64,000 nt of DNA, taken from positions 32,001 through 96,000 of IMG/VR virus record IMGVR_UViG_3300014204_000127. One strand, 5' to 3'. The notes below the pieces were generated by a model that saw only the letters and a list, made by a program, of their open reading frames with translations, was not told where the DNA came from and did no database searches. Source of the DNA: a virus (Duplodnaviria > Caudoviricetes). Numbering within the stretch: the first letter of the stretch is position 1; every line of letters starts with the position of its first letter. The translations under genes were made by a program, and so were the position numbers. This document shows, one piece after another, positions 20,345-55,957 of the stretch.

Positions 20345-20373
20345 AGTATACTCCTCTTTCATTAGAAAGTCAA
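20345..20373 (-). promoter_or_regulatory. sigma70-like promoter
   Basis: TTGACT-17-TATACT. Confidence 0.7.
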
Positions 20374-39700: not shown

Positions 39701-39787
39701 TATATATAGATTGCTGTGTTCATCTTGTACTTTAGCTGTTTCGATGTTCTTCTCGTCTTTATTTATATTATTTATATTATTTATCAT
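36773..39787 (-). CDS. nrdD: anaerobic (class III) ribonucleotide reductase, intein-containing
   Basis: YCF, SPFTN, SCCRL, PGES, Zn site, YTRVVGY glycyl-radical loop. Confidence 0.95.
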   Translation of the reverse strand: MINNINNINKDEKNIETAKVQDEHSNLYIPDAKTDRTRKNIYKELLFRLNEVYAKPECTNAILKIHGMDARRFDFISNVENFMLQKLNDISVDDNSNKNDTTLEGIFQESVIPIRKIIGYDILYREMKHLYGKEEAKRLSRNLYDFSLALHDASKTDRIYCFALNAMPIVLEGRKFGQLHSAPSKHIQSYISALCETLHQLSNHVAGALAVGTFFMDCCHVLLKDGYDIESLKKPKIRKLIENEFQQFVHSLNHLSRNGSECFTIDTEVLTTEGFKKYNEVKEGDLVYTWKEGVLEIKPIEKVNIFDYDGEMHQYSGRDLYQCVTPNHRILAKKNNSTEYWLKPSSELIDNKTPLTIPVAFLEYNKEDYNISDDLLKLCTIILTDGCIDSNEKVVICKSNRRFGKELIEELLQKLNIKYTHSIQENVFSITTDNYKDTKYICNIYNLLMGKEKTQLLTLLNKTKKELPKWFGSLSKRQARIVLDIWSKFDGHGSFDKVDEKIKLQADNYTIANQLQQVAVIAGYGSTITERHIGKNKNSTIYVYLRKRANKSLKSKEKIQYKGKVWCPTTKNGIVLFRDKNKNTFISGNSPFTNLSIFDSHKLKKMVEDMSWYFDSFNKDSEYLTQYIMELQKIFIDFFDKGDPCAGNLQFRFPVISINLSKDDKTKKIIDTEFLEDFCNKYDIYRYNIFVSSGSKVASCCRLSMSQAEMMSMASQVNSFGGVAISLGSHRVVTVNMPRMALMPLNYKDFYKNLYTYIEDAAKILKAHKSLLYKLTDAGLQPFIKNGYLPLAKTFSTFGIIGISECREILEHRFGKIESDDVIRDILEFFNKTVLEMGKKYDIAVNIEQIPGESMAVRLADADRLLFGKELVPYKMYSNQFIPLWEDSTIFDRIRTSGLYENFLTGGSITHLMVGEEVSPIQAKKLIEYSSENGIEHFALNMVYSQCENNHVTHGKFKDCPTCDGKIVDYYTRVVGYIVSVKNWPKVRREWEFENRKFVDVKDI
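38021..39004 (-). mobile_element. intein (328 aa) with LAGLIDADG-like domain in NrdD
   Basis: starts CFTIDTEVLT, VTPNHR block B, ends FISGN|S; IILTDG and SKFDG motifs. Confidence 0.88.
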
Positions 39788-41207: not shown

Positions 41208-41702
41208 TTAACTAGATGTTTTCTTTTTTACGATATTTTTAAGACAACTCTCCAAACCCTTTGAAACCGCCTCTTTTTGTACGGCATATTTATCATCAAT
41301 AGTAAATTTCTTTTCATTGTATGCCACAAGCATTTTAGATAATTTGAATAGCTGTCCCTTCTTTTTATATAGATAAACTATTGCTATTGCTACACATATA
41401 ACAATTACAAATAAAATTGGTACAATAATGACAAGTGTACTGCCATCTACCACAAGATTACTTACATTAATACCCCAACCACCTGTATTAAGATTGTTGG
41501 TACTGTTTTGAGAAAGCTGTTTTGTAACCTCTTTTGATATCTCAGTTTGCAGACTGGATTTGAAATGGGGACTCGCAATATTGGCCTCTACTTCTGCCTT
41601 TACATCCGCCCTTATAGCATCCTTCTCTACACAACCTATTGTATATATAGAAATAAATACACAACATATGATGGTCAGTAACATGTTTTTTAATTTTATC
41701 AT
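41208..41702 (-). CDS. membrane/lipoprotein-like hypothetical protein
   Basis: signal peptide with TIGC and a second TM helix. Confidence 0.6.
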   Translation of the reverse strand: MIKLKNMLLTIICCVFISIYTIGCVEKDAIRADVKAEVEANIASPHFKSSLQTEISKEVTKQLSQNSTNNLNTGGWGINVSNLVVDGSTLVIIVPILFVIVICVAIAIVYLYKKKGQLFKLSKMLVAYNEKKFTIDDKYAVQKEAVSKGLESCLKNIVKKKTSS

Positions 41703-41761: not shown

Positions 41762-42607
41762 CTATTTCATGTTACAATAACGACATAAGATACTATCATC
41801 CTGTGCTTTATATTTTGCCATAAATTGAATAAATTTATCAGATTTCATAAAATCTTCTGGATTATCATAGTCTAATATGTTTCCCATTATATATTCTTTA
41901 TTATAATCATTACAGCACAGAACTATATCCCCATTATATAAAATATGCATCCAATTGTACAACCTGCTGCATATAGGTTGGTTTCTTTTCTTGTGGTACG
42001 CTTTTTCTATCTGGCCACCCCTATCATTATATTTAAAAAATCTTATATTTTCAGCCTTAAAATTATTGTGTGTCTCTTTTGTGACATAATCGTAAAATTC
42101 TTCAGCATCATAATATTTTTCAGTGGTGTCGCACTCTATTTCAGGAATACCGCATCCTTGTATTCTAAACTCCATTTTCTTAATCATATAATTAACATTA
42201 TTCCAAACCTTTTCAGGGTCTATTTTCATCATATTTCTATGCTGCTGTCTGGAAGCACCCTGCACACTTACTATTAATCTATATGGGGTATGTATAAATG
42301 TCTCGGCCAATAAATCTATTTTGTTCTTTGTAAGCAACTCGGCATTGGTAGATATTTCTATAAAGCCAAATTTTAATTCATTTTTTACTATATTTATTCT
42401 TTCTATGATGTTTTTATCACTAAAAGGCTCGTTCATTAAATATAAGCATATTCTTTCTATATTCTTTACTTTTTTTAAATTGTTTACTATATTCCTAAAG
42501 ATAGTGTCATCCATTATAACAGGGTTTTTATTAAACCACGACCCCTCATAAGGACATATACTGCATCGGGCATTACATATGGTTGTTGTTTGTATTTGTA
42601 TATTCAT
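41762..42607 (-). CDS. radical SAM/SPASM-domain protein
   Basis: CNARCSIC, NEPF, STNA; SPASM C..GDIVLCC.D..GN..CRYC. Confidence 0.92.
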   Translation of the reverse strand: MNIQIQTTTICNARCSICPYEGSWFNKNPVIMDDTIFRNIVNNLKKVKNIERICLYLMNEPFSDKNIIERINIVKNELKFGFIEISTNAELLTKNKIDLLAETFIHTPYRLIVSVQGASRQQHRNMMKIDPEKVWNNVNYMIKKMEFRIQGCGIPEIECDTTEKYYDAEEFYDYVTKETHNNFKAENIRFFKYNDRGGQIEKAYHKKRNQPICSRLYNWMHILYNGDIVLCCNDYNKEYIMGNILDYDNPEDFMKSDKFIQFMAKYKAQDDSILCRYCNMK

Positions 42608-43144
42608 TTATTTTATGGCCTTTACGTTCAAATGCCAATCCTCACTATCATTTCCTTCTTTATATTCCTTAATATTCAGAAAACCACAAGAAAATAACAA
42701 GTCCCTTAGTGTACCGAATGTATATCCCCACAGGTGTCTGCTATATTTGCCTCCAGTTTCCTCTCTGTCCCAACCATAAAATCCTGCCATAGCGTGTTCT
42801 GGTTGGTTGTTGAGATTGCTTTTTGACATGCCCAGCAATTGCTTTGCGTGAAATTCTATATTGGGCACAATTATATGAAGTGTGCCCCCTTTTTTTAATA
42901 TATCGTACCAGTTTTTAATAACATTTATCGCCTCCTCCTTTGTAAAATGTTCTAAGACGTGTCTGGCGTATATTAAATCTACTTTCCCTATATACCTATC
43001 GTCGTCTATGGGATACCTGCTGTCCCACACTATATCAGGGTTTACTTCTCGTCTAATGTCTGTATTGATGTACCCATCTATTTTTTTATTACTGCAACCT
43101 ATATTAAATTTTACTTCTTTTATGTCTTTTATGTCTTTTTCCAT
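42608..43144 (-). CDS. class I SAM-dependent methyltransferase
   Basis: FNIGCS, YINTD, HVLEH, LKKGG.L.I.VP. Confidence 0.88.
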   Translation of the reverse strand: MEKDIKDIKEVKFNIGCSNKKIDGYINTDIRREVNPDIVWDSRYPIDDDRYIGKVDLIYARHVLEHFTKEEAINVIKNWYDILKKGGTLHIIVPNIEFHAKQLLGMSKSNLNNQPEHAMAGFYGWDREETGGKYSRHLWGYTFGTLRDLLFSCGFLNIKEYKEGNDSEDWHLNVKAIK

Positions 43145-43156
43145 TTTTATCCCATC

Positions 43157-44179
43157 TCATCTTACTGACATATTATCTATTAAAGGGTTTTGATTATTAT
43201 AAAAAACTGTACCAGGAAAAGAACAAAACCTATAAAAACCACTTACTCTCATTTTTCCACTATTTCTTTTTATAAAATCCAGTGTCATTTGCTTCTCTTG
43301 TGGTGTTTCAGTAGGCATATCATACATAAAGGAACAATATACTGGAAGACCTATCTTATTTGCAATATTTATTGCATTTTGATTGATTTCAACTGTACTC
43401 TTTTTATTAAGTAGTTTCAGTATCCTGTCACATCCACTTTCTGCACCAAATCTAACTCCCTTAAATCCCATTTCTTTCATTTTTATACATATATCGTCAT
43501 TGAACATGTTTGCTCTGATAAATGACCATAATTGCAATCTTTTATTATAACCCCTCTTCATCCATAATTCATATATCTCATAAAATCTTTTAACATTGCC
43601 GATAAACAGGTCATCCATTATATAAAGCCATTTTGCACTCGAACCGTATTCTATCAATAGGTGTTCTACTTCATTAATAAAATATTCTGCTGAAACATAC
43701 CTTACTTTTTTCCAATACTCAGTTGAACTACAAAAAGCACAGTCATAGGGGCACCCCCTGGAGGTAAACAAAGGTACTTTCGCCTCTCTAAGACTTCCCC
43801 TTTTTGGGAAATTTAAAGTATTTAAATCAGTAGTATAACACTCCAATATTCTGTTTTCGGTTCCGTCTATTATGTCCTGTAGTGATTTTTCACCATCCCC
43901 TTTAACAATGTGTTTAAAAGGGTATTTTTCCAAATCCCCCCACAGTGTAGACTGTCCTCCAATTATAACAGGGATGTTAGTTGTACTTAATATATCTATT
44001 GCCTCTTTTATACCATGTGCTGTTGCCGATATGCCTATATAATCACAATCTTTTAAATTATCTCTGTTTTTTTCAAATGAAATATCAGCGTTTTTAACAT
44101 TGGTCATTAGATAGCCAATACTAAGAGGAATTTCACTTTCCGGCCTTTCTGAGCCACAGGAATACAATTTAATTTTCAT
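43157..44179 (-). CDS. B12-binding radical SAM protein (class B methylase-like)
   Basis: PLSIGYL, VIIGG, KGDGE, TSRGCPYDCAFC, FGAESG. Confidence 0.92.
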   Translation of the reverse strand: MKIKLYSCGSERPESEIPLSIGYLMTNVKNADISFEKNRDNLKDCDYIGISATAHGIKEAIDILSTTNIPVIIGGQSTLWGDLEKYPFKHIVKGDGEKSLQDIIDGTENRILECYTTDLNTLNFPKRGSLREAKVPLFTSRGCPYDCAFCSSTEYWKKVRYVSAEYFINEVEHLLIEYGSSAKWLYIMDDLFIGNVKRFYEIYELWMKRGYNKRLQLWSFIRANMFNDDICIKMKEMGFKGVRFGAESGCDRILKLLNKKSTVEINQNAINIANKIGLPVYCSFMYDMPTETPQEKQMTLDFIKRNSGKMRVSGFYRFCSFPGTVFYNNQNPLIDNMSVR

Positions 44180-44726
44180 TTATAAAAACCTTTCCAGTCT
44201 CTCTCATAAACTCTCTTTTCATTGTACTACACTGTCTTACTTCTCTTGTGGCATACTCACATAGAGAGAAATCATATTTTTTAAACATATCTATCCAATA
44301 ATCCTCTGTTCTGCAATTAACATGATGATGTCCATTTTTTCCAGGAAGTGCGTGTGTCATGCAAATCACTTTACAGTTCTTTAATGTCCTAAATACATTA
44401 ACTAAATAAAGTTCTTCAATGTGTTCGAAAAACTCTACAGACCAACAGAGGTCAAAAAATCCTGTAATAATTCCAGACTCTGAATAATCATTACACACCC
44501 CCACTATATTTTTGGACTGCCATGTTTTAAATAATGACATGTCGCCGTCTATTCCCAAACAAGAAACACCATTGTTTTTGGCTATTTCTAGCATACCACC
44601 AGGGCCACAACCAATATCTAAAAATGTCTGGGGTTTAAATGTTTCTAATAAATAACTAAAAGCCCCCTCATCCAGATGAGTCACATTCTCATGACCCCCG
44701 AGATGAGATTTTTTTGAGTGTATCAT
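44169..44726 (-). CDS. class I SAM-dependent methyltransferase
   Basis: FLDIGCGPGG, FDLCWSVEFFEH, GHHHVNC..YW. Confidence 0.88.
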   Translation of the reverse strand: MIHSKKSHLGGHENVTHLDEGAFSYLLETFKPQTFLDIGCGPGGMLEIAKNNGVSCLGIDGDMSLFKTWQSKNIVGVCNDYSESGIITGFFDLCWSVEFFEHIEELYLVNVFRTLKNCKVICMTHALPGKNGHHHVNCRTEDYWIDMFKKYDFSLCEYATREVRQCSTMKREFMRETGKVFINEN

Positions 44727-44740
44727 TGAATCTTATCTTT

Positions 44741-45391
44741 CTATAGTGTTTTTAATATCTTTTCAGCAAAATCAAAATCATCTGGATAATCTATATCTAT
44801 ATTTTCAATAGATGACAAAACCTGAAAATAGGGGTTGTCCCCCAATCTTCTTCCTTTTTCTATCTGTTCTTTTGTAAAAATATAAAAACCCGAGGTTTCT
44901 ATGTAAATTGGCTTCAAATCCTGTGTTTTTTGTCTATTTAGAGGAGTAAAATTTAAAGGCTTTCCATCAAACCAAATAAATGTCTGATGTTTCTCAACAG
45001 AAGCAGCTGAATCATATTGACCCCCTGCCACCATGTCTATTGCGTTTTTTATAGAACTACTTTTTAAAAAAGGGGATGTTGTGTGTGCCAATATATACAG
45101 GTCGGCATCTACCTTGTCCACAAAGTCCCTATAAATAGAAATACCTAGTGTATTATCGTTGTCCAGACAGGCAGGACGTTTCAAAAAAGTAGCCCCTTTT
45201 GGAAGTATGTCTTCTAGTACTGGGTCACTAGAAAAACCAAAAACACCATCCAAATAATCTATATCAAGAAGTGTTTCAAATATGTATCTGCACAATGGTT
45301 TATCGCCCAATAGTTTTAAATTTTTCTTTGGTGTTCTTTTACTGTTAAAACGAACAGGCGAAAAAGCCACTATTTTTTTTGAATTATACAT
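44741..45391 (-). CDS. neuA: acylneuraminate (CMP-nonulosonate) cytidylyltransferase
   Basis: PVRFNSKRTPKKN, TTSPF, TQDL, ETSGFYI, IDIDYPDDF. Confidence 0.9.
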   Translation of the reverse strand: MYNSKKIVAFSPVRFNSKRTPKKNLKLLGDKPLCRYIFETLLDIDYLDGVFGFSSDPVLEDILPKGATFLKRPACLDNDNTLGISIYRDFVDKVDADLYILAHTTSPFLKSSSIKNAIDMVAGGQYDSAASVEKHQTFIWFDGKPLNFTPLNRQKTQDLKPIYIETSGFYIFTKEQIEKGRRLGDNPYFQVLSSIENIDIDYPDDFDFAEKILKTL

Positions 45392-45408
45392 TTTTAAACC
45401 TTTTTTAG

Positions 45409-46143
45409 TTATTTGTATATATCAGCGTCATTCAGAGATATGTATGGAAATAAGTCTTTTATTGCCGAATCAGCAGAACAATTAATAACCTCTATACCGT
45501 TATTTTTGTACCAACTGCTTAGACTATCCCATGCTGGAAAATGGTATTTATCCAAATTTGGAAGATTTAAAACATCTCCTTTTTGTAAATAACCTTCAAA
45601 CCCATAATTAATATTAGTAGGGTTATTGCCTACAATCACCCTTTTACCCCCTATCCGCTTTAATCCCTTCTCTCGTTTATGGTTTAAATCAATGCCAATC
45701 AAATATAATCTGTTATATCCCAGAGCTATGGCTATCTGACAGCAATTGGCTCCCGTACTGCCCACATTTTCAAAATAATATTTGCCATCCTGTGGTAATT
45801 TAAATCTAAAAGTTGGCTCAGTCCATCCAGTTTGTATTATCTTTTTGTTTAATGGTTTTTTATCTTTTTTTGTTATTCGTGGGGCATAAAAACATTTTAA
45901 TCTTTCATCAGATTTTTCAACATAATCTATAAAATTATTATTATGATGTGAACACACTAGTTCATCAAAACACCCATGATATGTTGGGAACCACCCTATT
46001 GATAAAAAATGGCGGTATGCACTGTTCATACCAAAAGAGGCTATTTTAACTCTTTTTAAATCCAATTCGGATACTGATGGCCCGTTTCCTATTATAAGTA
46101 TACTCTTATTCAAAGTTAACACCCTTAAAATACCCACTGTCAC
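45409..46143 (-). CDS. sialyltransferase-like (GT42/Cst-II or Maf/DUF115) protein
   Basis: IIGNGPS, GMNSAY, STGA..IAIALGYNRLYLIGID, VINCS. Confidence 0.72.
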   Translation of the reverse strand: MTVGILRVLTLNKSILIIGNGPSVSELDLKRVKIASFGMNSAYRHFLSIGWFPTYHGCFDELVCSHHNNNFIDYVEKSDERLKCFYAPRITKKDKKPLNKKIIQTGWTEPTFRFKLPQDGKYYFENVGSTGANCCQIAIALGYNRLYLIGIDLNHKREKGLKRIGGKRVIVGNNPTNINYGFEGYLQKGDVLNLPNLDKYHFPAWDSLSSWYKNNGIEVINCSADSAIKDLFPYISLNDADIYK

Positions 46144-46786
46144 TTAACAATATAAATTCATCTCTTGTCAAATGCTGTACATAAAAAGATTTGTCCCCTA
46201 TTGGTATAGGTCTGTTTCTCCCCCCTCGCATTGACATATATTGAATATCTTGTTTATTGTATTCTTTTAAAGACAGGAACTTTAATTCAGGTCTATTGTA
46301 TAAATAACCCTCATTACCACATAGAGAAAGGTACATGTTAATAAATTTTAAAATATAGTCTCTTTGAATAAAAACCAGACTCTGTTCTATTTTGTAATTG
46401 TGGTCAAAAAACCCCACCAACATTTTACATTGTTTTTCCTCTATGTCACTATACAACGAATCAACCCAATTACCAAAACAAAAACAATCCTCCTCTTTAT
46501 ATATGAAATCAGTGCCGTTCATGTAAGCACAAAGTGCCCCGTGCATGAATGCCAACCACCACCCACTAAAAGGAGTATTTTCTTTTAGATTTTGAACATG
46601 TCCGTAGTTGTGGGTATAATTATGCCAATTACATTTATAATCTGTGACATATTTGTCTCCCCCTGTATTGATTATCTCAATAGATTGGGGATTTGAATTT
46701 TCTAAAGTATTATAGACCCACAAGTTAAAAAAAGCAAAATTATTCTTTTTATAGTTACCAGATGTTATTGTGTATTTATTACTCAT
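46106..46786 (-). CDS. putative glycosyltransferase-like protein
   Basis: FIYKEEDC (DxD-like) motif; operon context. Confidence 0.5.
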   Translation of the reverse strand: MSNKYTITSGNYKKNNFAFFNLWVYNTLENSNPQSIEIINTGGDKYVTDYKCNWHNYTHNYGHVQNLKENTPFSGWWLAFMHGALCAYMNGTDFIYKEEDCFCFGNWVDSLYSDIEEKQCKMLVGFFDHNYKIEQSLVFIQRDYILKFINMYLSLCGNEGYLYNRPELKFLSLKEYNKQDIQYMSMRGGRNRPIPIGDKSFYVQHLTRDEFILLSDSGYFKGVNFE

Positions 46787-46787
46787 T

Positions 46788-47141
46788 TTATATTAACAGC
46801 GTAAATATTGCACCAATTGCCGCACTAATCAATCCCTTTTTAATAGCCTGTCCATATTCATACATCTGTTGATTATATTCATTGGCTTTAGTTATAAAGG
46901 CATTACCTATTGTAATCCATTGTTCATCACTACTATTTTCTCTCAGTAGCTTTTGAGCCTGTAACATTGAATCAATATCATCTGAAAATAGATTGTCTAA
47001 CACAACTTGTGCCTGTAATTTACCCATTTTAATCAATGCTGGTATAATTGGATTAATAAGGTCTATAAATTTCTCAAGATTACTATCACCCAAATCTAAA
47101 GAAACCGTCTGGTCATCCGTAATATTTATAGCTATTGTCAT
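46788..47141 (-). CDS. hypothetical protein with C-terminal TM helix
   Basis: ORF in contiguous gene run. Confidence 0.6.
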   Translation of the reverse strand: MTIAINITDDQTVSLDLGDSNLEKFIDLINPIIPALIKMGKLQAQVVLDNLFSDDIDSMLQAQKLLRENSSDEQWITIGNAFITKANEYNQQMYEYGQAIKKGLISAAIGAIFTLLI

Positions 47142-47356
47142 AATTATACAATCCTAAGACATGTCCCTAGTTCTAACATCGGGTTCTGAACCAAGTTCCA
47201 GTTTACTTATTGTATCTATTATAAATTGTAGTGCTTTCTCCTTTTCTTCTTTTGTTCCATCTAACGAATCAACACAAATAGTAATGATTCTTTCATCACT
47301 TCCTCTAACTGTTTTGTGTGTAATATTTAAACCCACTGTACTCATTTTATTTCTCC

Positions 47357-47686
47357 TTATTTAGAAATATTTGTACTTTCTATAAGCACATTTGTTGTCT
47401 GAGGCTTAGTACCACGAATATAGTCCAAAATTGGTCTATTTAGTTTTAAAGTGTATTCTGCCTGTGAATACAACATTTGGGACAATTGGTCTTTTGTATA
47501 TGCATCTAAAATGTTGTTTTCATTGGTCTTAAGTTTTTTAGCATATTCCATTCTATATTCAGAATCGGTCTGTATATTAACAACACAACTCTTAACCTCT
47601 TTTGGAACAAGCTCTTTACACCCAGATGTTACAAGAACAGAAAATAGTGTGCATAGAAATAGCATAATAATTAGTTTGTTTTTCAT
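47357..47686 (-). CDS. putative lipoprotein
   Basis: signal peptide with TSGC lipobox. Confidence 0.65.
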   Translation of the reverse strand: MKNKLIIMLFLCTLFSVLVTSGCKELVPKEVKSCVVNIQTDSEYRMEYAKKLKTNENNILDAYTKDQLSQMLYSQAEYTLKLNRPILDYIRGTKPQTTNVLIESTNISK

Positions 47687-47983
47687 AATTTATCCTTATT
47701 TTAATAATTTATTTAGATCTTTGGGCTTTACACACCCCATCTATTCTATATTTTAATTCTATCCCCAACCATTTAGCATATGCCTTTTTCTTATCAGAAA
47801 GCTCACCGGTTAAGGGGGTAACAATACAGTTAGGACACATACTGCCCTGTTCACATGGTATGGCTAGGTATGCTTGTATACACCCACAACTGGGGTCTCT
47901 AATCATGGCCCTTGCTATTTTATCTTTATTTTTAGCAACATCTTCGGGTATAATAATTAGTTTGTTTTTCATAATTTATCCTT
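47664..47983. repeat. 34-bp exact direct repeat (47664-47697 / 47950-47983) covering RBS plus MKNKLII
   Basis: ataataattagtttgtttttcataatttatcctt twice. Confidence 0.9.
47709..47972 (-). CDS. Cys-rich hypothetical protein
   Basis: same first 7 codons as the downstream lipoprotein. Confidence 0.65.
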   Translation of the reverse strand: MKNKLIIIPEDVAKNKDKIARAMIRDPSCGCIQAYLAIPCEQGSMCPNCIVTPLTGELSDKKKAYAKWLGIELKYRIDGVCKAQRSK

Positions 47984-47993
47984 GTTTTTTCCT

Positions 47994-48542
47994 TTATTCT
48001 ATAAGACCACGTTCTGTTAATGTTAGTTCAAGTTCTTTTTCTGCAATAACTTCACGAAGTCCCTTTTTGAACCCTGTTGCAGCATTTGTCAGAGCATTGC
48101 CAACAATACCAGTCCATATTGTCTGTTGTTCCTGATACTCTGGATAACTCCTTAGATACGCTTCAGCAGAACCAATAACACCCAGTATAAGCGTTTTAGT
48201 TACAGAACGCAGGTCAGCATCAGTAAGGCGTTCATCAAGATACTTGTCAATAATAGACACACCATTAGTAGGTGTAGTAAGTGCATTTACAATATTAGAA
48301 CCACTACCAATCTGTTCAAGAACTGTGCTAAAATCACCCACAACTGTTGCAATTTGTGTAGCTGCAATAACTTGGGCATCAGTCCACTTGTTGCTAGCTG
48401 TGGATGCTATGCCATATCCAGCAGTCCACGATACCGAACCCACCATTGTTGATACTTCATTTGAAGTCATTTCTACATTCTTGCAACCCATTCCTAGACA
48501 TGCAATCATTGCCATTACCATAGTTAAAACCATCTTTTTCAT
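47994..48542 (-). CDS. putative lipoprotein
   Basis: MKKMVL..LGMGC lipobox. Confidence 0.7.
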   Translation of the reverse strand: MKKMVLTMVMAMIACLGMGCKNVEMTSNEVSTMVGSVSWTAGYGIASTASNKWTDAQVIAATQIATVVGDFSTVLEQIGSGSNIVNALTTPTNGVSIIDKYLDERLTDADLRSVTKTLILGVIGSAEAYLRSYPEYQEQQTIWTGIVGNALTNAATGFKKGLREVIAEKELELTLTERGLIE

Positions 48543-48577
48543 TTTATTTTCCTTCTTTCTCTAAAATTTAGTAACAA

Positions 48578-48748
48578 TTAATCTTCGGACTTCAAAAGCA
48601 TTTCCGCCGGGTTTGGTTCATAAGCCACTTTAAGAACTTTAGTATCATCATCGTACTCAAAGCCCTTAACAACACTACCTACTAATTTTATTAAATCAAA
48701 CACAGCATCTCTACTTTCTATCCGTAAAGCCACATCATTACATTTCAT
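48578..48748 (-). CDS. small hypothetical protein
   Basis: start placed at the ATG within the repeated leader. Confidence 0.6.
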   Translation of the reverse strand: MKCNDVALRIESRDAVFDLIKLVGSVVKGFEYDDDTKVLKVAYEPNPAEMLLKSED

Positions 48749-48770
48749 TTTATTTTCCTTCTTTCTGTTT

Positions 48771-49058
48771 TTATTCAACTTTGATGTTTATTTCAAAAAC
48801 ATGTCCCAATGATTTATGACAAACCTCTGAATAGGCTTCAGTATCAAACCTGTAGACCACATCATCTATTTCAACATCAGAACAGTCTTTCAAAGTATTC
48901 TCAAGTTTTTTAACAAACATATCTGTTTTATAATCAATATGGTTAAAAAACTCATCACAACATCGTACTATTATTTTACTGCTGTCAGGTTTATTCTTTA
49001 ACTGAACACTAAAATCATCTATTATCAACTGTATCAATATTTCTACATCTTTTTCCAT
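48771..49058 (-). CDS. hypothetical protein, paralog of 56246..56770
   Basis: VRCCDEFF, KSLGHVF. Confidence 0.7.
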   Translation of the reverse strand: MEKDVEILIQLIIDDFSVQLKNKPDSSKIIVRCCDEFFNHIDYKTDMFVKKLENTLKDCSDVEIDDVVYRFDTEAYSEVCHKSLGHVFEINIKVE

Positions 49059-49090
49059 TTTATTTTCCTTCTTTCTTTAAACTATTTTTT

Positions 49091-49363
49091 CTATTTCTTG
49101 GCCTTACCAAAACCACTTAAAACACCACCAACTATTCCCCCACACAAAAGCGATGCAGCCCATTGATATGTAAACAACCCATAGGGAATCTGTCCAGCAT
49201 TGGGAATATATCCCAAAATAAGTGTATTTATTCCCCAAATCAAAAGAAGGGGGCCAAATAACACACATGCTACTATAAAAATCAATGCCACAAAAATAAC
49301 TGCCACCGATTGTCCAACACTCATGTTCTTTTCTCCTTGTTTATATTTACGTTTATTTTTCAC
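49091..49363 (-). CDS. small membrane protein
   Basis: GPLLLIWGINTL TM motif. Confidence 0.6.
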   Translation of the reverse strand: MKNKRKYKQGEKNMSVGQSVAVIFVALIFIVACVLFGPLLLIWGINTLILGYIPNAGQIPYGLFTYQWAASLLCGGIVGGVLSGFGKAKK

Positions 49364-49373
49364 TATCTATTAT

Positions 49374-49401
49374 ATTATACACCATTTTTATCGCATTGCA
49401 A
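49374..49401 (-). promoter_or_regulatory. sigma70-like promoter
   Basis: TTGCAA-16-TATAAT. Confidence 0.68.
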
Positions 49402-49429
49402 GCATAAAATAAAAAAAACTACAATAATT

Positions 49430-50413
49430 CTATTTATTTTTAAATTTAACATCCTCAGCATATTTATCCGACTCCATTTCTCTAACAGCCTTGCCAATGA
49501 TGTCCAAAAACGGCTGAAGATTCCCATCATCATATTCGTAAAGATATAATAAATACTTTCCTCTAGACCTATATATGTTAAAATCAGCGATAATTCTTGA
49601 AAACAGGTACTTGTTTTTAAGCACAAGTACTGGCCCACTACCACAAAACAAGTCTGGATAAGCACTTACAATCCTATTTCTTATTCCATCTATTCTATTT
49701 CTCATTCCCTGTATATCATAGTCCTTTATGGTATTATAAAACTCAAAAAGACCATAAAGATTAGCAGTCTGTGCATGATTTTTAAAATATTCCTTTGTCT
49801 GGTATCTAATTAACGAATCTAAATCAAGAACGCTATAGGGCTTATATGTATGATGAATCTGCTTAAATATGTTCTTTTTGTAGACGATAAAAGAAACAGG
49901 GGACTGGCATTTAAAAAGTGTGCCAGTTGTTCCCACCCATGCGGTAACATTTTCCGGTACATCTACATAAGGAAAACTATCACAACAATCCAAATAAATA
50001 TTTTTATACCTAACAACATTGCTCTTATTCTTATCTACATAAACCTCTCGTTTCATCATGTCAGGGTCTCTGACATACCCAGAAAAGGGGTTGTACATGG
50101 AACCATAGATAATATAATGAGAACCAGCCCATCGTTCTTCCTGCAATAACTTGTTTTTAATGTGCATAACCCTGTCTGGAGCAGGTTCATATCTAGTAAA
50201 AGAGCATGTTCGTATTTTGTTTTTGAGAGAGTTTATCAGTATTTCACATGCTGTAATATCATCGGCAAATACCCAAACCATGTCATATTCGGTTGAATCC
50301 ACACCAAAAGCGTTAAAAAACCTGGTCTTTAGTGCTTGTAAAAAATCTATATACTCATCATCATACTGACTTAGATACCTGTTATTAAAATATATTGTAT
50401 TTCTTTTAAGCAT
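49430..50413 (-). CDS. divergent PLP-fold (class V aminotransferase-like) protein
   Basis: IYLDCCDSFP ...WVGTTGTL..PVSFIV resembles VDAxSS/SxK..GL, but no canonical Lys. Confidence 0.45.
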   Translation of the reverse strand: MLKRNTIYFNNRYLSQYDDEYIDFLQALKTRFFNAFGVDSTEYDMVWVFADDITACEILINSLKNKIRTCSFTRYEPAPDRVMHIKNKLLQEERWAGSHYIIYGSMYNPFSGYVRDPDMMKREVYVDKNKSNVVRYKNIYLDCCDSFPYVDVPENVTAWVGTTGTLFKCQSPVSFIVYKKNIFKQIHHTYKPYSVLDLDSLIRYQTKEYFKNHAQTANLYGLFEFYNTIKDYDIQGMRNRIDGIRNRIVSAYPDLFCGSGPVLVLKNKYLFSRIIADFNIYRSRGKYLLYLYEYDDGNLQPFLDIIGKAVREMESDKYAEDVKFKNK

Positions 50414-50421
50414 TTATATCT

Positions 50422-50664
50422 TTATTTAGAATATTTAGGCACTTTATACCACGCCACAACAGGGGAAACACCATTAAAATCAATTTTGTCTCTCACATCA
50501 TACCACCCCAATCCCTCTATATAATATGCCTGCCCCTCTTTTAATATCCCATTATCATCATAAACAATATTGTGGTAGAGACAAGTGGGGATATTTTCTT
50601 CTGGTGCTGTATTTTCACAAGACATCCATCCAAACCTACTATCCTCATGTTTAATTATTTCCAT
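50422..50664 (-). CDS. hypothetical protein (DUF551-like)
   Basis: WMSCE...P..VVAW. Confidence 0.5.
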   Translation of the reverse strand: MEIIKHEDSRFGWMSCENTAPEENIPTCLYHNIVYDDNGILKEGQAYYIEGLGWYDVRDKIDFNGVSPVVAWYKVPKYSK

Positions 50665-51446
50665 TCTATTCCCAGTTCTTTCATTCGCTTGTTAAAAATA
50701 TAATCATCAACCTTTAACATTAAATTTCTTTTTTCATCCACTATTTCTTTGCTTTCCTCTGTTACAAGATACTTTGTGGAAACAGCTTGTGTATCTATTT
50801 TAAGAACATTCTGTCCATTTGACAACCGTAGAGTAAAATCTGTTTCATCTCTATATGATGCATCGGAATAGTTTACAAAAAAACCACCAATTTCTTGAGC
50901 CTTTTTAATATTATAGGCAAAACTAGAATATAAAAAAGAGGAGTCTAATATTACAGGTTCTTTCCATTTAAAAAATTGAACATGTTTTACATTATAATCG
51001 GGTACAAACAGTGCTTTATCATCAATATAGTAACAAAGACGCTGCTCAAAGTGTGGCGGGAACACCCCTCCTACGGCTGGATATCCCTCTAATGCTAAGG
51101 TAAATATCCTGTCAATACAGCCTTCTTGAGGCACACTACTATCATCCCATTTAAATGCTATGTCAATATTGTCATTGATAAACATATCTAATGCTGTTTG
51201 ACTGCCAGAAGGAACATTTTTACCATATTCTGATTTAACAATGTGTACAGGAACATCTGACTTTATTTTCCCCTCTAATACAGAGACTTCATTATTATCC
51301 ACAACCACAATATATTGTGGTTTATTAACAGAATTTTCAAAAGCACACACTATATCTTGTATATAAGGTATTCTTTCTATGCCCCTTGATGAAATACCCA
51401 CTGCATATGTCTTGTCTAAACTGGATGGTTTATCTTTTTTTTCCAT
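50655..51446 (-). CDS. GT2-family glycosyltransferase
   Basis: IVVVDN, KWDD, IGGF, DETDFTLR. Confidence 0.8.
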   Translation of the reverse strand: MEKKDKPSSLDKTYAVGISSRGIERIPYIQDIVCAFENSVNKPQYIVVVDNNEVSVLEGKIKSDVPVHIVKSEYGKNVPSGSQTALDMFINDNIDIAFKWDDSSVPQEGCIDRIFTLALEGYPAVGGVFPPHFEQRLCYYIDDKALFVPDYNVKHVQFFKWKEPVILDSSFLYSSFAYNIKKAQEIGGFFVNYSDASYRDETDFTLRLSNGQNVLKIDTQAVSTKYLVTEESKEIVDEKRNLMLKVDDYIFNKRMKELGIEWK

Positions 51447-51505
51447 TTTTTACCTTTTTGGTTTTATTATATTGAACTTTTTTTAAATTTATTAAAGTAT
51501 TATAT

Positions 51506-52411
51506 TCATTTCGTGCATCTATTTTGAAAATAGTCAACAATATGCTTAACCACGACATCAACATCTGGTTTCCATCCTTCCTTAATTATCTTACAGTATG
51601 CCCCAAACCAGTTAGTCTGGTTGTATACCTCTTCGTTCTGTTTATTGCCCCACACAATGTGGTCTGTTCCACATCTACTGGCAAGGTGCATTGTGCCAGA
51701 TGAACCCCCTACTGCAAGGTCTGAATTGCAGAGGATGTTAATACAGTCATTTATTGAAGTGGAGTTTACAAAGTTTTTAACACTCTTATCCGGCTTAAAT
51801 GTCTTATTCTTGACAAGTCCGATAGTTACAACATTATAATTCATATCACATAAAATTCTGGTAAGCTCATTCCAATATTCAAAATACCAATTTCTATGTT
51901 CAGCCAATTCCCTGTCTCTAAGACATAATGTTATTGTAGGGACATCTGTTTTATTAAATTTCATGCCTTTGTCTGTGAATATAAGTCTATCTGCACACCC
52001 CTCTGTTAGCATCCTATTATTAAAAATCTTTAAACTATTATACCAAAAGGTGTTAAAAGAAAGTCCCTCTTTTTTGAGTATTTCAAAACAAGATGCTCCA
52101 AGTTCATTAAGCTCCTTTTGTAGGCCACCGTCAAACTTATCCCAAAGAAGACACTGTGACTCATGTTTGGGAACATCTATTTCCCTATATTCAGCAAAAT
52201 TCCACAGAGCATCATATCCCTTTGAACCAAAAACTATACATCTTTTATAGTTGTTTTTATAAAAAATAGACCTAATAAGTGGCTGCCATGTAAAACAAAG
52301 CCACCCAAATTCACCCACATAGGGGCCTACCGCAAGAATATCACTTCTTTGTTGAATTTGATTATCCGGTTTATTTTGTTCTATTTCTATTTCTTTCTTG
52401 TTTTTTGCCAT
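51506..52411 (-). CDS. GT9 (heptosyltransferase-like) glycosyltransferase
   Basis: GEFGW, RNWYFEYW, VGGSSGTMHLASRCG. Confidence 0.8.
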   Translation of the reverse strand: MAKNKKEIEIEQNKPDNQIQQRSDILAVGPYVGEFGWLCFTWQPLIRSIFYKNNYKRCIVFGSKGYDALWNFAEYREIDVPKHESQCLLWDKFDGGLQKELNELGASCFEILKKEGLSFNTFWYNSLKIFNNRMLTEGCADRLIFTDKGMKFNKTDVPTITLCLRDRELAEHRNWYFEYWNELTRILCDMNYNVVTIGLVKNKTFKPDKSVKNFVNSTSINDCINILCNSDLAVGGSSGTMHLASRCGTDHIVWGNKQNEEVYNQTNWFGAYCKIIKEGWKPDVDVVVKHIVDYFQNRCTK

Positions 52412-52631: not shown

Positions 52632-52892
52632 TTAACCATCCTTTTCCTGTGTTTTATATGATACCTTGCTTTTTATACGTCTAGGAAGGGCATTACACAA
52701 TTCTTTAGGCCATCCTAATTTTTCTTTAAAATAGTTTCCAGCCATGGCCGCATCCTCACACTGTTTTATTGTTTTACCATAAGTAGTTATGTGTTGGTGA
52801 TTTGTGTCTGGTTCATATGCAAATATAACCACTTCTGGCCAGTCATACTTATCAGCAATTTCTTTTGCTACTCTTATAGGTATGTTTTTCAT
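52632..52892 (-). CDS. conserved phage hypothetical protein
   Basis: IPI..AK.IA, HITTYG. Confidence 0.65.
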   Translation of the reverse strand: MKNIPIRVAKEIADKYDWPEVVIFAYEPDTNHQHITTYGKTIKQCEDAAMAGNYFKEKLGWPKELCNALPRRIKSKVSYKTQEKDG

Positions 52893-53356
52893 TTTTGTTC
52901 TCCTTGATTGTTATTTTCATCCCTGATAATAAGTGGAAATCCCACCTTGTCTTTTAATAATGGGATTATCCATTTAAGATTATATATACAATTTTTTGGT
53001 AAGTCATCAACATCAGCAAGCAACACTGTTTCATCAGTCATGTGTTTATAATTATAGACATCTGTTTTTTCATTTAGATTGCCTCTAAAAACATAAACAA
53101 CCCATTTTTCTTTAGATGAGTATAGTGTGATACAGTGTTCCCAATCAGTACTAAAAATGCCTGTTTCTTCTTTAAACTCTCTTATCATAGCTTCTAAAAT
53201 ATGTTCATTGGCTTCAAGTTTTCCCCCTATTCCATTAATTTTTCCTTTTTGCCATAGGGGTCTATTTTTGTTAATCAACAATAATCTATCCCCATAACAA
53301 TTAAACATAAACCCTAAAACATATTCTTTATAATCATCCATCCTTATTTTCCTCAA
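52889..53356 (-). CDS. Nudix hydrolase (MutT-like)
   Basis: Nudix box GGKLEANE...AMIREFKEETG. Confidence 0.92.
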   Translation of the reverse strand: MRKIRMDDYKEYVLGFMFNCYGDRLLLINKNRPLWQKGKINGIGGKLEANEHILEAMIREFKEETGIFSTDWEHCITLYSSKEKWVVYVFRGNLNEKTDVYNYKHMTDETVLLADVDDLPKNCIYNLKWIIPLLKDKVGFPLIIRDENNNQGEQK

Positions 53357-54899: not shown

Positions 54900-55271
54900 C
54901 TATATTTCTATTGTTGCTACCAAACCGTCTCTTGTTACATTTGGATAGTTTCTCACATTGTTCAAATCAACCGTTGTGTACACAAGCATCTCGTTAGACA
55001 TGAGTTCTATAATCTTTTTAACAATAATATAAAACTTGTAATCATTTTTATGCATTAAAAAAGAGGGGCTACATTCTTCCATGTGTTGATGGTAGACATC
55101 TTCGTCTTTCTTGCCATGTCTTATGAATACAATAGAGCTTTGGGGGGCATCATCATATACCATAATATAACAGTCGCACCTCTTATATGTACCTAAATAT
55201 ACACATTCATCCCCATAGGAAAGTTCTGGATATATCTTTGTTGTTTTCTTAAATAATGGTATCGTTTTCAT
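54900..55271 (-). CDS. hypothetical protein
   Basis: 123 aa; has an adjacent paralog. Confidence 0.75.
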   Translation of the reverse strand: MKTIPLFKKTTKIYPELSYGDECVYLGTYKRCDCYIMVYDDAPQSSIVFIRHGKKDEDVYHQHMEECSPSFLMHKNDYKFYIIVKKIIELMSNEMLVYTTVDLNNVRNYPNVTRDGLVATIEI

Positions 55272-55957
55272 TTTAAATCCTTTAACTCTGCTAAATTGCC
55301 TTTTGTGTCAATTTCTTTAACTTCACTGTGTATTTTATCGGGCATTGTAACAAGATATGCCTTATCACAATACTTTATAATCTCTTTGGAATGGGTTACA
55401 AGAATTATCTGAATGCCCATTTCTTTAGATAAAGACTGTAAAAGACTTCCAAATGCCTGTTGCAATCCAGAAGACAACTGCTTAGTGGGCTCATCCAATA
55501 TCATTATGGGACTTGTTCTATTAGATGATAGGACATAAAATGCCAATCTTAGTGACATGGATACAATATCCTCAAACCCGCCACCAGTCGAATCCTCAAG
55601 GGGCATTTTTATACCGTTTTTGATATAATTAAAAACAGCTTCAGTCTGGTTTCGTTTTACCACAAAATCTATTTCAAAACCATATTCTTCACCATATACA
55701 GACGTTAGGGCAGTTGATACAATAGATTCTATGCACTGTTTCACCTCTGTCTGTGTATACATAAGAACATGATTAACAATGTCAAGGGCTTCTTTTGCTA
55801 CCAAAACTGAGCTTTCAGTCGTTTGTCTCCTTTGACTCAAACTGTTTAAACTATTCTGGGCAGCTTGTAAAGAAGCCTTTTTTGTATAAAGAAAATCCAG
55901 ATATCTGGATTCCTCTTGTTTATTCTGTTTAATCAGATTATTCTGCAAGATAGGCAT
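55268..55957 (-). CDS. SbcC/Rad50 C-terminal half (ABC ATPase)
   Basis: coiled coil, STGGG signature, MILDEP Walker B, LVTHS. Confidence 0.88.
   Translation of the reverse strand: MPILQNNLIKQNKQEESRYLDFLYTKKASLQAAQNSLNSLSQRRQTTESSVLVAKEALDIVNHVLMYTQTEVKQCIESIVSTALTSVYGEEYGFEIDFVVKRNQTEAVFNYIKNGIKMPLEDSTGGGFEDIVSMSLRLAFYVLSSNRTSPIMILDEPTKQLSSGLQQAFGSLLQSLSKEMGIQIILVTHSKEIIKYCDKAYLVTMPDKIHSEVKEIDTKGNLAELKDLK

Follow-up and report, generated by a model that had tools for sequence, protein, structure and literature searches.

Characterized enzymes of the Maf and GT42 families use nonulosonates as their natural donors. Kdo, an eight-carbon 2-keto-3-deoxy acid, is to our knowledge made by every Gram-negative cell. 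Phage kdsA and kdsB genes have already been published, as has the presence of Kdo on phage DNA. Kdo transfer has been shown for Maf-family enzymes (bioRxiv 10.1101/2020.06.03.131540), and KpsC and KpsS are beta-Kdo transferases whose characterized members act on lipid-linked acceptors (PMC12220298). Phage glycosyltransferases are also reported to add a Kdo-mass sugar and heptose to 5hmC, some of them with a cytidylyltransferase partner (bioRxiv 10.1101/2023.12.21.572611). Here, we describe a locus of an uncultured large phage, for which profile and structure matches recover a CMP-sugar synthetase, a Cst-II/Maf-fold CMP-sugar transferase as well as SAM and radical SAM tailoring enzymes. The nearest relatives of the synthetase and of one radical SAM enzyme are found in the context of Kdo genes.

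The locus lies in a window of 64,000 nt (positions 32,001-96,000 of the IMG/VR record IMGVR_UViG_3300014204_000127), to which all coordinates refer. The whole contig spans 113,897 bp with a CheckV completeness of 57%, and is considered viral because of its TerL, NrdD/NrdG and UvsX-like genes and the IMG/VR record. Genes were assigned by profile searches (Pfam, NCBIfam, PHROGs), PDB sequence matches, AF2 models with Foldseek and ESM Atlas models. A sequence-only reading had proposed a tightly coupled gene run at 41762-46786, of which both the positions and the families or folds were recovered. These seven genes (46786-41762) form the conserved core. The minus-strand block from ~52.4 kb down to 41.2 kb is best read as a phage glycan cassette, with all genes on that strand. 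The best promoter-like site (52472-52445, minus strand; 11/12 positions matching, extended -10) has 51506-52411 as its first downstream gene, and two terminator-like hairpins (41199-41170 and 41147-41122) directly follow the last gene, 41208-41702. NrdD/NrdG, an N6/N4 DNA methylase, SbcCD-like genes and a Nudix gene are found around the cassette.

The gene at 45409..46143 encodes a DUF115/MptE-like, GT42-fold CMP-ulosonic-acid transferase ("Maf/Cst-II-like") of 244 aa, which comprises the catalytic domain only. Pfam matches include MptE-like/DUF115 (35.5 bits, cut-off 34.6) and CST-I (28 bits, cut-off 25), the GNGPS motif is present, and Cst-II is matched among PDB sequences (E 1.4e-5). The AF2 model (pLDDT 91.6) retrieves Cst-II, Cst-I, Maf (5mu5) and 9c08 as the top PDB structure matches in Foldseek, which include a Pasteurella sialyltransferase. 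The CMP-sugar-binding fold is hence of the Cst-II/Maf type, as had been proposed. Homologues were found in 11 viral, 69 metagenome and 15 bacterial loci, and identity to DUF115 proteins of Kdo-context loci is only ~27% over ~150 residues. The gene overlaps by 38 nt with 46106..46786, which encodes a GT-A-fold glycosyltransferase (226 aa) of a phage-specific family. Pfam, NCBIfam and PHROG searches with the latter were all empty, and its ESM Atlas model (pTM 0.86) matches phage clusters as well as GT2, GT8, Nucleotid_trans and WavE-like clusters (TM 0.63-0.84). In locus L014, a Maf-like gene is immediately preceded by a 34% homologue of the GT-A gene.

The cytidylyltransferase at 44741..45391 (216 aa) is NeuA/PseF-like, with a CTP_transf_3 match of 58.5 bits (cut-off 22.6). 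Profiles reach 59 bits for PseF compared to <=19 bits for KdsB models, and PDB sequences yield 54 bits for NeuA and 30 bits for KdsB. Because profile scores favor PseF/NeuA over KdsB, the assignment to Kdo rests on gene neighborhood rather than chemistry. Relatives are encoded in 331 bacterial loci, and neighborhoods were counted in the best 80 of these, which show 46-54% identity. A KpsF/GutQ arabinose-5-P isomerase (TIGR00393, 357 bits, cut-off 204) is directly upstream in 56-57 of the best 80 loci and a KdsA homologue is found within 10 kb in 10 of them, with small DUF115 transferases (19 and 15 loci) and a GT2 (21 loci) downstream. In the Bacillaceae Cytobacillus, Fredinandcohnia and Lederbergia, the sole true KdsA of the genome (TIGR01362, 404-411 bits, cut-off 314) abuts a member of the window-type cytidylyltransferase subfamily, and no strong KdsB-type match was found in the three genomes examined. 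Cytobacillus and Fredinandcohnia carry a strong NeuB at a separate locus, adjoining a different CTP_transf_3 paralogue. Alistipes timonensis encodes the window-type subfamily, and NeuB was not found there. By the gene neighborhood of its relatives, the phage protein is probably a CMP-Kdo (or Kdo-derivative) synthetase of a subfamily genomically tied to Kdo synthesis.

The radical SAM protein at 43157..44179 (340 aa; Radical_SAM 65.4 bits) has a class-B (B12-type) architecture, with an N-terminal Rossmann-like domain followed by the CxxxCxxC core (motif CPYDCAFC). NCBIfam yields partial matches to many B12-radical-SAM models, far below cut-offs (PhpK, ApyD, HpnJ, MgmA-type). The AF2 model (pLDDT 95.6) matches MgmA (9ccb, TM 0.74) and also TsrM, TokK, OxsB, CysS, AprD4 and MiaB. 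As AprD4 and MiaB score equal to true B12 methylases, the predicted architecture is no proof of cobalamin use or methylation. Members of the clade are 45-70% identical, and four have precomputed PF02310 matches. In the complete phage G005, a 57% homologue forms a single protein with a PF05159 KpsC/KpsS-like domain, with a KdsA gene before the fusion gene (passing both equivalog cut-offs) and a SPASM radical SAM gene after it. The clade is also paired with KpsC/KpsS-like genes in the phage loci L118, L127 (two copies), L198 and L202. The second radical SAM protein (41762..42607, 281 aa, motif CNARCSIC) has a C-terminal SPASM domain, with Radical_SAM (50.7 bits) and SPASM (35.7 bits) both above cut-off. 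The order of a class-B followed by a SPASM radical SAM gene is shared with L124, L125 and L001/L129.

Two methyltransferases complete the core. The class-I SAM methyltransferase at 44169..44726 (185 aa; Methyltransf_11 34 bits) has a 42% homologue in L019, located after Maf-like and cytidylyltransferase genes in the same order as in the window. The small SAM methyltransferase at 42608..43144 (178 aa) is a weak class-I match (Methyltransf_11 21.4 bits, cut-off 21.2; phrog_6636 E 1.9e-8). Its homologues adjoin Maf-like and cytidylyltransferase genes in 23 loci, and class-B radical SAM genes in L118, L119, L199 (43%), L127 (40%) and L202 (33%). This type of methyltransferase is common to both kinds of related cassettes and links them. 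Co-occurrence in relatives thus holds for sub-sets of the core, which recur in phages and bacteria, but the complete seven-gene set was found on no other contig. The gene order of the window is kept piecewise in L014, L013 and L019, and the complete marine phages G001 and G002 carry the transferase/cytidylyltransferase pair. Marine "triad" phages are without KdsA and NeuB, and might use a different sugar given that their cytidylyltransferases are only 24-33% identical. Beyond cassette genes, G001, G002 and G005 share almost nothing with the window phage, which marks the cassette as mobile.

The genes at 49430-52411 belong to the cassette by adjacency only, and their co-occurrence with the core was never seen in ~180 related loci. 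The proposed GT9-like (heptosyltransferase-family) protein at 51506..52411 (301 aa) is marginal, with Glyco_transf_9 at 23.4 bits just above the Pfam cut-off of 22, and 21.9 bits against the Heptosyltransferase II model (cut-off 134.6). The suggestion of a GT2 at 50655..51446 (263 aa) could not be confirmed, as Pfam, NCBIfam, PHROGs and PDB sequences gave no match and the call goes back to a GT-A-like "IVVVDNN ... WDDSS" motif (VVVDNN/DD-type) seen by eye. For the proposed PLP-fold protein at 49430..50413 (327 aa), the Pfam search was empty, but its ESM Atlas model predicts the fold of a class-V aminotransferase (TM 0.72-0.78 to Aminotran_5 / 2-aminoethylphosphonate transaminase clusters; DUF6024 nearest by features); a Lys in "FKC" and an Asp in "DCCDSF" can be seen by eye. 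Nine small ORFs of 63-182 aa occupy 46788..49363. Signal-peptide-like hydrophobic starts ending in Cys mark two of these (47357-47686 and 47994-48542) as putative lipoproteins, in agreement with the lipoprotein genes proposed in between, and likewise the last gene, 41208..41702 (164 aa), which has no homologue in related loci. The nine ORFs have no confident Pfam family, the sole match being AI-2E_transport for 49091-49363 (17.5 bits, far under the 34.3-bit cut-off). In related loci, tblastn yielded only a marginal match of 65 residues between 47357-47686 and L001, and the small ORFs show no conservation alongside the core enzymes.

The sequence-only reading had favored a nine-carbon nonulosonate as the sugar. 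A cassette activating a Pse-, Leg- or Neu-type sugar from the host or the missing genome part, followed by methylation and transfer to virion proteins, phage lipoproteins or the envelope, would match the best cytidylyltransferase hits (PseF, NeuA), the best structure matches of the transferase (sialyltransferases, Maf), and the bacterial transferase homologues (27-31% identity), which are often found, together with a CTP_transf_3 gene, in islands resembling those for flagellin glycosylation. The lack of NeuB and NeuC noted for the window extends to the full 113,897-bp contig, where KdsA, DegT and an SDR epimerase were not found either. With 43% of the genome missing, neuB/pseI or kdsA could be encoded outside the contig. 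A nonulosonate is nevertheless rather unlikely, as the cytidylyltransferase relatives are tied to KpsF/KdsA, with NeuB pairing with the other paralogue, and the radical SAM relatives are linked to KdsA and to adjacent or fused KpsC/KpsS-like domains. NeuB was also not found in the complete phages G001 and G002.

The core genes might also be neighbors rather than one pathway, with the pair handling a CMP-sugar and the radical SAMs and methyltransferases modifying a peptide, a small lipoprotein or a cofactor. Peptide maturation is typical of both SPASM and class-B radical SAMs, ApyD and several RiPP maturases are among the best partial NCBIfam matches, small ORFs are numerous in the vicinity, and the seven genes are not found together elsewhere. 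Phage genes are packed tightly whatever their function. The physical fusion in G005, the repeated adjacency of KpsC/KpsS-like genes to the radical SAM clade, the 42608-type methyltransferase adjoining both this clade and the Maf/cytidylyltransferase pair, and the lack of conservation of the small ORFs with the enzymes make separate pathways improbable. Alternatively, the cassette might hypermodify the phage DNA by adding an acidic sugar, similar to the Kdo/heptose-on-5-hydroxymethylcytosine pathways already described for phages. Its position among nucleotide-metabolism and DNA genes would suit such a role, and DNA is kept among the candidate acceptors because phage glycosyltransferases attaching Kdo to 5hmC DNA have been described (bioRxiv 10.1101/2023.12.21.572611). 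However, a C5-methyltransferase, a TET/JBP dioxygenase and a ThyA-type hydroxymethylase were not found on the contig, and the initial view that DNA is the less probable target still appears sound. The DNA glycosyltransferases described so far adopt a T4 beta-GT-like GT-B fold, in contrast to the DUF115/GT42 fold of 45409-46143, and relatives of the cassette use KpsC/KpsS-like domains, with characterized members acting on lipid-linked acceptors (PMC12220298). A DNA modification pathway is hence highly improbable.

We consider it reasonably likely that the phage takes Kdo or a close derivative from its host and activates it with CMP, followed by methylation and transfer. We infer an order of steps in which Kdo or a very close derivative would come from the host and be turned into a CMP-sugar by the cytidylyltransferase. 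Both SAM methyltransferases and both radical SAM enzymes, class-B and SPASM, would then tailor the sugar or the CMP ester, most likely by methylation and possibly at an unactivated carbon. The DUF115/GT42-fold enzyme would finally move the sugar onto its acceptor, with the GT-A enzyme (46106-46786) helping. DNA would be a doubtful acceptor and the virion or other phage proteins a tentative one, with something else accounting for the remainder. There is about an even chance that the sugar would be placed on an envelope glycoconjugate of the infected cell, of an LPS-core-like or capsule-anchor-like type.

Seven minus-strand genes, abutting or overlapping between 46786 and 41762, form the core of a glycan cassette and confirm the coupled gene run noted by the sequence-only reading. 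The first encodes a GT-A-fold protein (46106-46786) without a profile match, for which a confident Atlas model resembles phage GT2, GT8 and WavE-type proteins. In marine phages, a conserved gene of 283 aa lies upstream of Maf-like genes; a kinship of the GT-A gene with it was rejected, as the two share no significant similarity. A transferase (45409-46143) with both the MptE-like/DUF115 and CST-I profiles over cut-off follows, then a cytidylyltransferase (44741-45391) with a full-length CTP_transf_3 domain and a class-I SAM methyltransferase (44169-44726) recognized by profile. The last three genes encode a radical SAM enzyme of class-B architecture, in which a Rossmann-like domain at the N-terminus precedes a CxxxCxxC core (43157-44179), a class-I SAM methyltransferase with a weak profile match (42608-43144), and a SPASM radical SAM enzyme matching the Radical_SAM and SPASM profiles (41762-42607).

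A first line of evidence on the sugar comes from the cytidylyltransferase. The enzyme matches PF02348 (CTP_transf_3) over residues 12-212 of 216, with 58.5 bits against a cut-off of 22.6. It misses the PseF equivalog cut-off (TIGR03584, 59.3 bits against 205.7) as well as the KdsB cut-offs (at most 19 bits against 193-255, in the N-terminal region alone), and PDB matches to NeuA reach only 54 bits. Judged by profile, the enzyme is equally distant from every curated equivalog. Hundreds of bacterial homologues with 46-54% identity occur in Bacteroidales and Bacillaceae. Among the best 80 of 331 bacterial loci encoding relatives, a KpsF/GutQ arabinose-5-phosphate isomerase lies directly upstream in 56-57 (TIGR00393, 357 bits) and a KdsA homologue lies nearby in 10. 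Downstream genes in the same 80 loci encode small DUF115 transferases (in 19 and 15 loci) and GT2 enzymes (in 21). Cytobacillus massiliigabonensis, Fredinandcohnia humi and Lederbergia panacisoli each have a single equivalog-passing KdsA (404-411 bits), which abuts this cytidylyltransferase, and a search of these three Bacillaceae genomes found no match of KdsB strength. Cytobacillus and Fredinandcohnia encode a strong NeuB elsewhere in the genome, beside a different CTP_transf_3 paralogue, and L. panacisoli has only a weak NeuB-family match, also elsewhere. Bacteroides intestinalis carries a second KdsA ~3 kb from its copy of the cytidylyltransferase, and the genome of Alistipes timonensis contains the subfamily and no NeuB. 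Close homologues hence have KpsF/KdsD and KdsA rather than NeuB as neighbors, which is the neighborhood of a Kdo pathway. The simplest reading of this gene context is that the subfamily represents a NeuA-like lineage of CMP-Kdo synthetases.

The order KpsF, NeuA-like cytidylyltransferase, small DUF115 transferase and GT2 recurs as a widespread and apparently uncharacterized bacterial module (loci L232-L311). In Bacillaceae, which are Gram-positive and without LPS, the module accompanies the only KdsA of the genome. In ~20 Alistipes-type loci, a LuxE-like acyl-protein synthetase gene takes the upstream place of KpsF.

The transferase at 45409-46143 exceeds the cut-offs of PF01973 (DUF115/MptE-like, 35.5 bits against 34.6) and CST-I (28 bits against 25), and its N-terminal GNGPS motif aligns with Cst-II in a PDB sequence alignment. 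For an AF2 model built from an alignment of 28 homologues (pLDDT 91.6), strong PDB matches were confined to Cst-II, Cst-I, Maf and a Pasteurella sialyltransferase. Foldseek matches to GT42 reach an E-value of 2e-7 with a probability of 1.00 and a TM score of about 0.5, and Maf (5mu5) is matched at 1.9e-4. The sequence-only reading depended on a CMP-sugar-binding fold in this protein, and the fold is present given that the model matches Cst-II, Cst-I and Maf. The family is probably not simply GT42, since in a HMMER sequence alignment an invariant tyrosine (Tyr185) stands opposite the histidine of the Cst-II 'IGH' motif, presumably the catalytic His188. The window transferase has the same fold as Maf (5mu5) and the GT42 enzymes Cst-I and Cst-II (2p2v, 1ro7) and the same nucleotide-binding motif, GNGPS, near its N-terminus, and the donors of these enzymes are CMP-activated 2-keto-3-deoxy acids. 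Maf-family enzymes have been found experimentally to accept CMP-Kdo (bioRxiv 10.1101/2020.06.03.131540). The window protein differs by consisting of a catalytic domain only, at 244 aa compared to ~600 aa for Maf with its flanking domains, by an identity of 14-20% to the Maf/Cst structures at a TM score of about 0.5, and by the lack of a flagellin or LOS context. Identity to the DUF115 proteins of Kdo-context loci is only about 27%.

The transferase has homologues at 11 loci in viral, 69 in metagenomic and 15 in bacterial sequences. A CTP_transf_3 gene lies within 5 kb of the homologue in seven of the 15 bacterial loci, including a Desulfovibrio locus that also carries a radical SAM and an FkbM methyltransferase gene. 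The transferase, a homologue of the methyltransferase at 42608-43144 and a CTP_transf_3 gene cluster within ~7 kb as a triad in 23 loci, mostly on large marine viral contigs. There, the triad is surrounded by genes for a Gmd-like dehydratase, DegT, cupin, SDR and HAD-nucleotidyltransferase proteins and a second Maf/GT29-like protein. Short contigs retain the exact window order from GT-A gene to transferase (L014) and from transferase to cytidylyltransferase (L013), and a further locus (L019) continues from transferase and cytidylyltransferase to a homologue of the methyltransferase at 44169-44726. No second contig among the related loci carries the complete seven-gene set. A transferase with 100% identity across 99% of the query is encoded on a separate contig of 103,470 bp. 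Marine viral contigs of 155-190 kb encode a 554-623-aa protein (L003:13172-15043, L008:13390-15054) that contains a second domain of the Maf/DUF115 type and weakly matches GT29 sialyltransferases, located within the Gmd, DegT, cupin, SDR and HAD-nucleotidyltransferase sugar cluster. A PDB sequence search with a 309-aa protein of L003 gave nothing useful.

The class-B architecture of the radical SAM enzyme at 43157-44179 is supported by its AF2 model (pLDDT 95.6). The model matches the B12 methylases MgmA, TsrM, TokK and CysS, as well as OxsB, AprD4 and MiaB, and the B12-free enzymes AprD4 and MiaB match it as well as the B12 methylases do. The B12-binding domain PF02310 is undetected in the window enzyme, and four members of its clade have precomputed B12-binding Pfam matches. 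We infer that the enzyme would depend on cobalamin and act as a methylase. GenK/GenD1 and Fom3 are cobalamin-dependent radical SAM methylases acting on sugars or CMP-linked substrates, and Fom3, which methylates CMP-hydroxyethylphosphonate, serves here as an analogy for the tailoring of a CMP-linked sugar. The window enzyme resembles the B12 methylases MgmA, TsrM, TokK and CysS, which are among its best structural matches, in its N-terminal Rossmann-like domain and CxxxCxxC core, and its gene neighbors a cytidylyltransferase gene, as for Fom1/Fom3. However, its length of 340 aa falls well short of that of characterized B12 methylases, and it reaches no equivalog cut-off. Its clade is tight (335-365 aa, 45-70% identity) and has members in 14 viral loci and five small MAG contigs. 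Neighbors of clade members include homologues of the methyltransferase at 42608-43144 (33-43% identity), further methyltransferases, SPASM and other radical SAM enzymes, a second class-B paralogue, and KpsC/KpsS-like genes (PF05159). The SPASM enzyme (41762-42607) scores 50.7 bits against 29.5 for Radical_SAM and 35.7 against 21.5 for SPASM; a kinship with the radical SAM enzyme beside the Desulfovibrio Maf-like gene was rejected, as the two share generic N-terminal radical SAM similarity only. A separate minus-strand protein at 35360-36364 matches Radical_SAM (72 bits) and Fer4_12 and lies beside a DUF6745 protein (34205-35272). Together with NrdG, it brings the number of radical SAM enzymes in the window to four.

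The second line of evidence comes from G005, a complete, terminally redundant (DTR) phage genome of 102 kb (101,995 bp). Its homologue of the class-B enzyme (57% identity) forms the N-terminal third of a 1062-aa protein with a KpsC/KpsS-like C-terminus, with a 355-aa region assigned to no family between the two. A KdsA over both NCBIfam equivalog cut-offs directly precedes the fusion gene, and a SPASM radical SAM gene comes next in this stretch (L001:9192-14012). The beta-Kdo transferases KpsS and KpsC assemble the poly-Kdo anchor of capsules (PMC12220298). The G005 genome encodes no CTP_transf_3 gene, so that the phage presumably relies on the KdsB of its host. G005 and the window phage share six weakly similar ORFs and no more. 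Nevertheless, G005, unrelated in other respects, retains the window order on the minus strand of an SbcD-like gene (56757-57710), an SbcC-like ATPase fragment (55268-55957) and the glycan cassette. The complete marine phages G001 and G002, which carry the transferase/cytidylyltransferase pair, share only the triad with the window phage. With so little else in common to these phages, the cassette is mobile.

The parent contig, an IMG/VR viral sequence of 113,897 bp whose bases 32001-96000 make up the window, is a linear record, 57% complete by CheckV, with a GC content of ~33% and almost every gene on the minus strand. Genes for a large terminase, NrdD/NrdG, an N6/N4 DNA methylase, a UvsX-like recombinase and SbcCD-like proteins identify it as a fragment of a tailed-phage genome. 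No close deposited phage was found, with megablast of the cluster and of its marine relatives against 50,697 phage records returning zero matches. In tblastn searches of the same records, neither the window transferase nor that of G002 had a match, and the sole match of the window cytidylyltransferase was a mis-filed bacterial contig (Moritella viscosa). The large terminase (12022-14493, minus strand) is unusually long at 823 aa, its extra N-terminal region matches a DnaC-like loader PHROG, and tblastn matches span only 54-64% of the protein. The 1004-aa NrdD (36773-39787, minus strand) probably carries an intein or homing-endonuclease insertion, given that a LAGLIDADG_3 match at residues 489-548 splits the NRDD profile match into two stretches. 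A 476-aa protein (20362-21792, minus strand) combines an N-terminal P-loop kinase-like region (CoaE/AAA_18) with a C-terminal CTP_transf_like nucleotidyltransferase domain, and may be a salvage enzyme of the NMN/NaMN-adenylyltransferase type.

The genes upstream of the core appear attached by adjacency only. The genes at 49430-52411, with GT9, GT2 and PLP-fold assignments, and lipoprotein genes in between had been included in the cluster by the sequence-only reading. Three ORFs have lipoprotein-like N-termini. The GT9 call is marginal at the Pfam level (PF01075, 23.4 bits against 22, 95 residues covered), and the equivalog-level score is far below cut-off (TIGR02195, 21.9 against 134.6); a PDB sequence search with the 301-aa protein gave nothing useful. 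The GT2 call for 50655-51446 (263 aa) lacks profile support, as searches of Pfam, NCBIfam and PHROGs assigned the protein to no family at E<=0.01, and a PDB sequence search gave no meaningful match. The PLP-fold protein has no Pfam match, and its Atlas model shows a class-V aminotransferase fold. Essentially none of the small ORFs at 46788-49363 or genes at 49430-52411 has a homologue in the related loci examined, the lone exception being a marginal match of 65 residues between 47357-47686 and L001. Because the flanking genes lack such homologues, the conserved system is the seven-gene core. Just upstream of the GT9-like gene lies the region's best promoter-like site (52472-52445), and two terminator-like hairpins (41199-41122) lie downstream of the last lipoprotein-like gene. 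These ends are suggestive of a block that could form a single 11-kb transcription unit, with the promoter scan as a whole yielding 85 sites compared to 73 +/- 7 by chance and hence no excess. Just upstream of the promoter-like site, a minus-strand Nudix hydrolase (52889-53356, 38.6 bits) could act on nucleotide sugars or have an unrelated role.

We suggest that the host would supply Kdo and the phage cytidylyltransferase would make the CMP-sugar. The methyltransferases and radical SAM enzymes might act on the sugar itself, on its CMP ester or on the residue once transferred, and the DUF115 transferase would build the glycan together with the GT-A enzyme. Characterized GT9 enzymes add heptose onto Kdo, and the GT9-like gene in the block would fit an LPS-inner-core-like acceptor. 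The KpsC/KpsS-like relatives suggest lipid-linked envelope glycans as a candidate target. In its full form, the proposal joins an undescribed C-methylated (branched) Kdo-type sugar, a minimal 340-aa class-B radical SAM enzyme acting on Kdo or CMP-Kdo, activation by unrecognized NeuA-like CMP-Kdo synthetases, small DUF115 proteins as a new class of Kdo transferase, and a cassette mobile across unrelated phages in which DUF115 and KpsC/KpsS-like transferases replace one another. We regard this combination as tentative and doubtful as a whole.

The sequence-only reading assigned the cassette to the activation and transfer of a 9-carbon nonulosonate. Two independent lines point away from such a sugar, as relatives of the cytidylyltransferase go with KpsF/KdsA and relatives of the radical SAM enzyme with KdsA and KpsC/KpsS-like proteins. 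The absence of NeuB and NeuC from the window, noted earlier, extends to the entire 113.9-kb contig (PF03102, none at E<=1), as far as its 57% completeness reaches. The same contig encodes no KdsA, DegT or SDR epimerase/dehydratase, and homologues of NeuB and KdsA are both absent from the complete phages G001 and G002. A phosphonate pathway was considered given the PhpK-type top NCBIfam match of the radical SAM enzyme and the AEP-transaminase-like PLP-fold protein. It was rejected because no PEP mutase is detected on the contig (PF13714, none at E<=1) and the neighbors point to Kdo. DNA hypermodification is a minor rival, with Kdo known to be attached to 5hmC DNA in phage pathways (bioRxiv 10.1101/2023.12.21.572611). 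The DNA-glycosylation clusters described there (C5-MT, 5mYOX and GT) are likewise phage-encoded, draw on host sugar-nucleotide pools including a sugar of Kdo mass, and sometimes have a cytidylyltransferase partner as in the window. However, the window lacks their defining C5-methyltransferase and TET-like dioxygenase and its transferase has a different fold. Searches of the contig for C5-methyltransferase, TET/JBP and ThyA-like genes (PF00145, PF12851, PF00303) gave no match at E<=1.

The proposed Kdo cassette recalls the capsule-type Kdo supply and transfer genes of Gram-negative bacteria, such as kpsF-kpsU-kpsC-kpsS of E. coli group 2 capsules (PMC12220298), as both would combine a dedicated CMP-Kdo supply with dedicated Kdo transferases separate from the LPS pathway. 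Relatives of the window genes are found with KpsF, KdsA and PF05159 KpsC/KpsS-like domains. In contrast to the capsule system, the window synthetase is NeuA/PseF-like rather than KdsB/KpsU-type and the transferase has a DUF115/GT42 fold rather than belonging to KpsC/KpsS (GT107). The window set is also phage-borne, lacks export genes, and includes a pair of methyltransferases and a pair of radical SAM enzymes in addition. Ulosonic-acid activation or synthesis genes are known from other large phages, with kdsA/kdsB in cyanophage S-SCSM2R (PMC12801897) and Gmd, WcaG, ManC, NeuA and KdsA, together with WaaG, in a marine environmental viral genome (PMC5332604). Such sets have been interpreted as remodeling the host surface and as a 'lock-out' of other phages (PMC12801897, PMC5332604). 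These reports are at the annotation level and concern canonical KdsA/KdsB or NeuA; their gene lists contain no DUF115 transferase, no class-B or SPASM radical SAM enzyme and none of the methyltransferases.

Phage kdsA/kdsB, NeuA/KdsA/Gmd sets in marine viral genomes and Kdo on phage DNA are already published. New are the combination of a minimal DUF115 transferase and a NeuA-like cytidylyltransferase with links to KpsF/KdsA, the association of this pair with a class-B radical SAM enzyme, a SPASM radical SAM enzyme and two methyltransferases, and the evidence of phages swapping the transferase type inside an otherwise similar cassette. A full-text literature search retrieved no paper combining radical SAM, cobalamin and nonulosonic acid, and DUF115 appeared with Kdo in no paper beyond the Maf study (bioRxiv 10.1101/2020.06.03.131540).

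The NeuA-like cytidylyltransferase and small DUF115 families are widespread in Bacteroidales and Bacillaceae and also occur in phages. If the Kdo assignment is true, a large, uncharacterized branch of the "acylneuraminate cytidylyltransferase family", with hundreds of loci across Bacteroidales and Bacillaceae, would consist of Kdo-pathway enzymes, and the adjoining small DUF115 proteins would be an unrecognized class of Kdo transferases. The annotation of many capsule loci in gut bacteria and of many glycan loci in Bacillaceae would change. The tailoring of a 2-keto-3-deoxy sugar acid by radical SAM enzymes would constitute new sugar chemistry, encoded by a modular acidic-sugar cassette exchanged among phages. 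The target of the cassette, be it the masking of host receptors or the decoration of virions, would bear on superinfection exclusion and phage host range.
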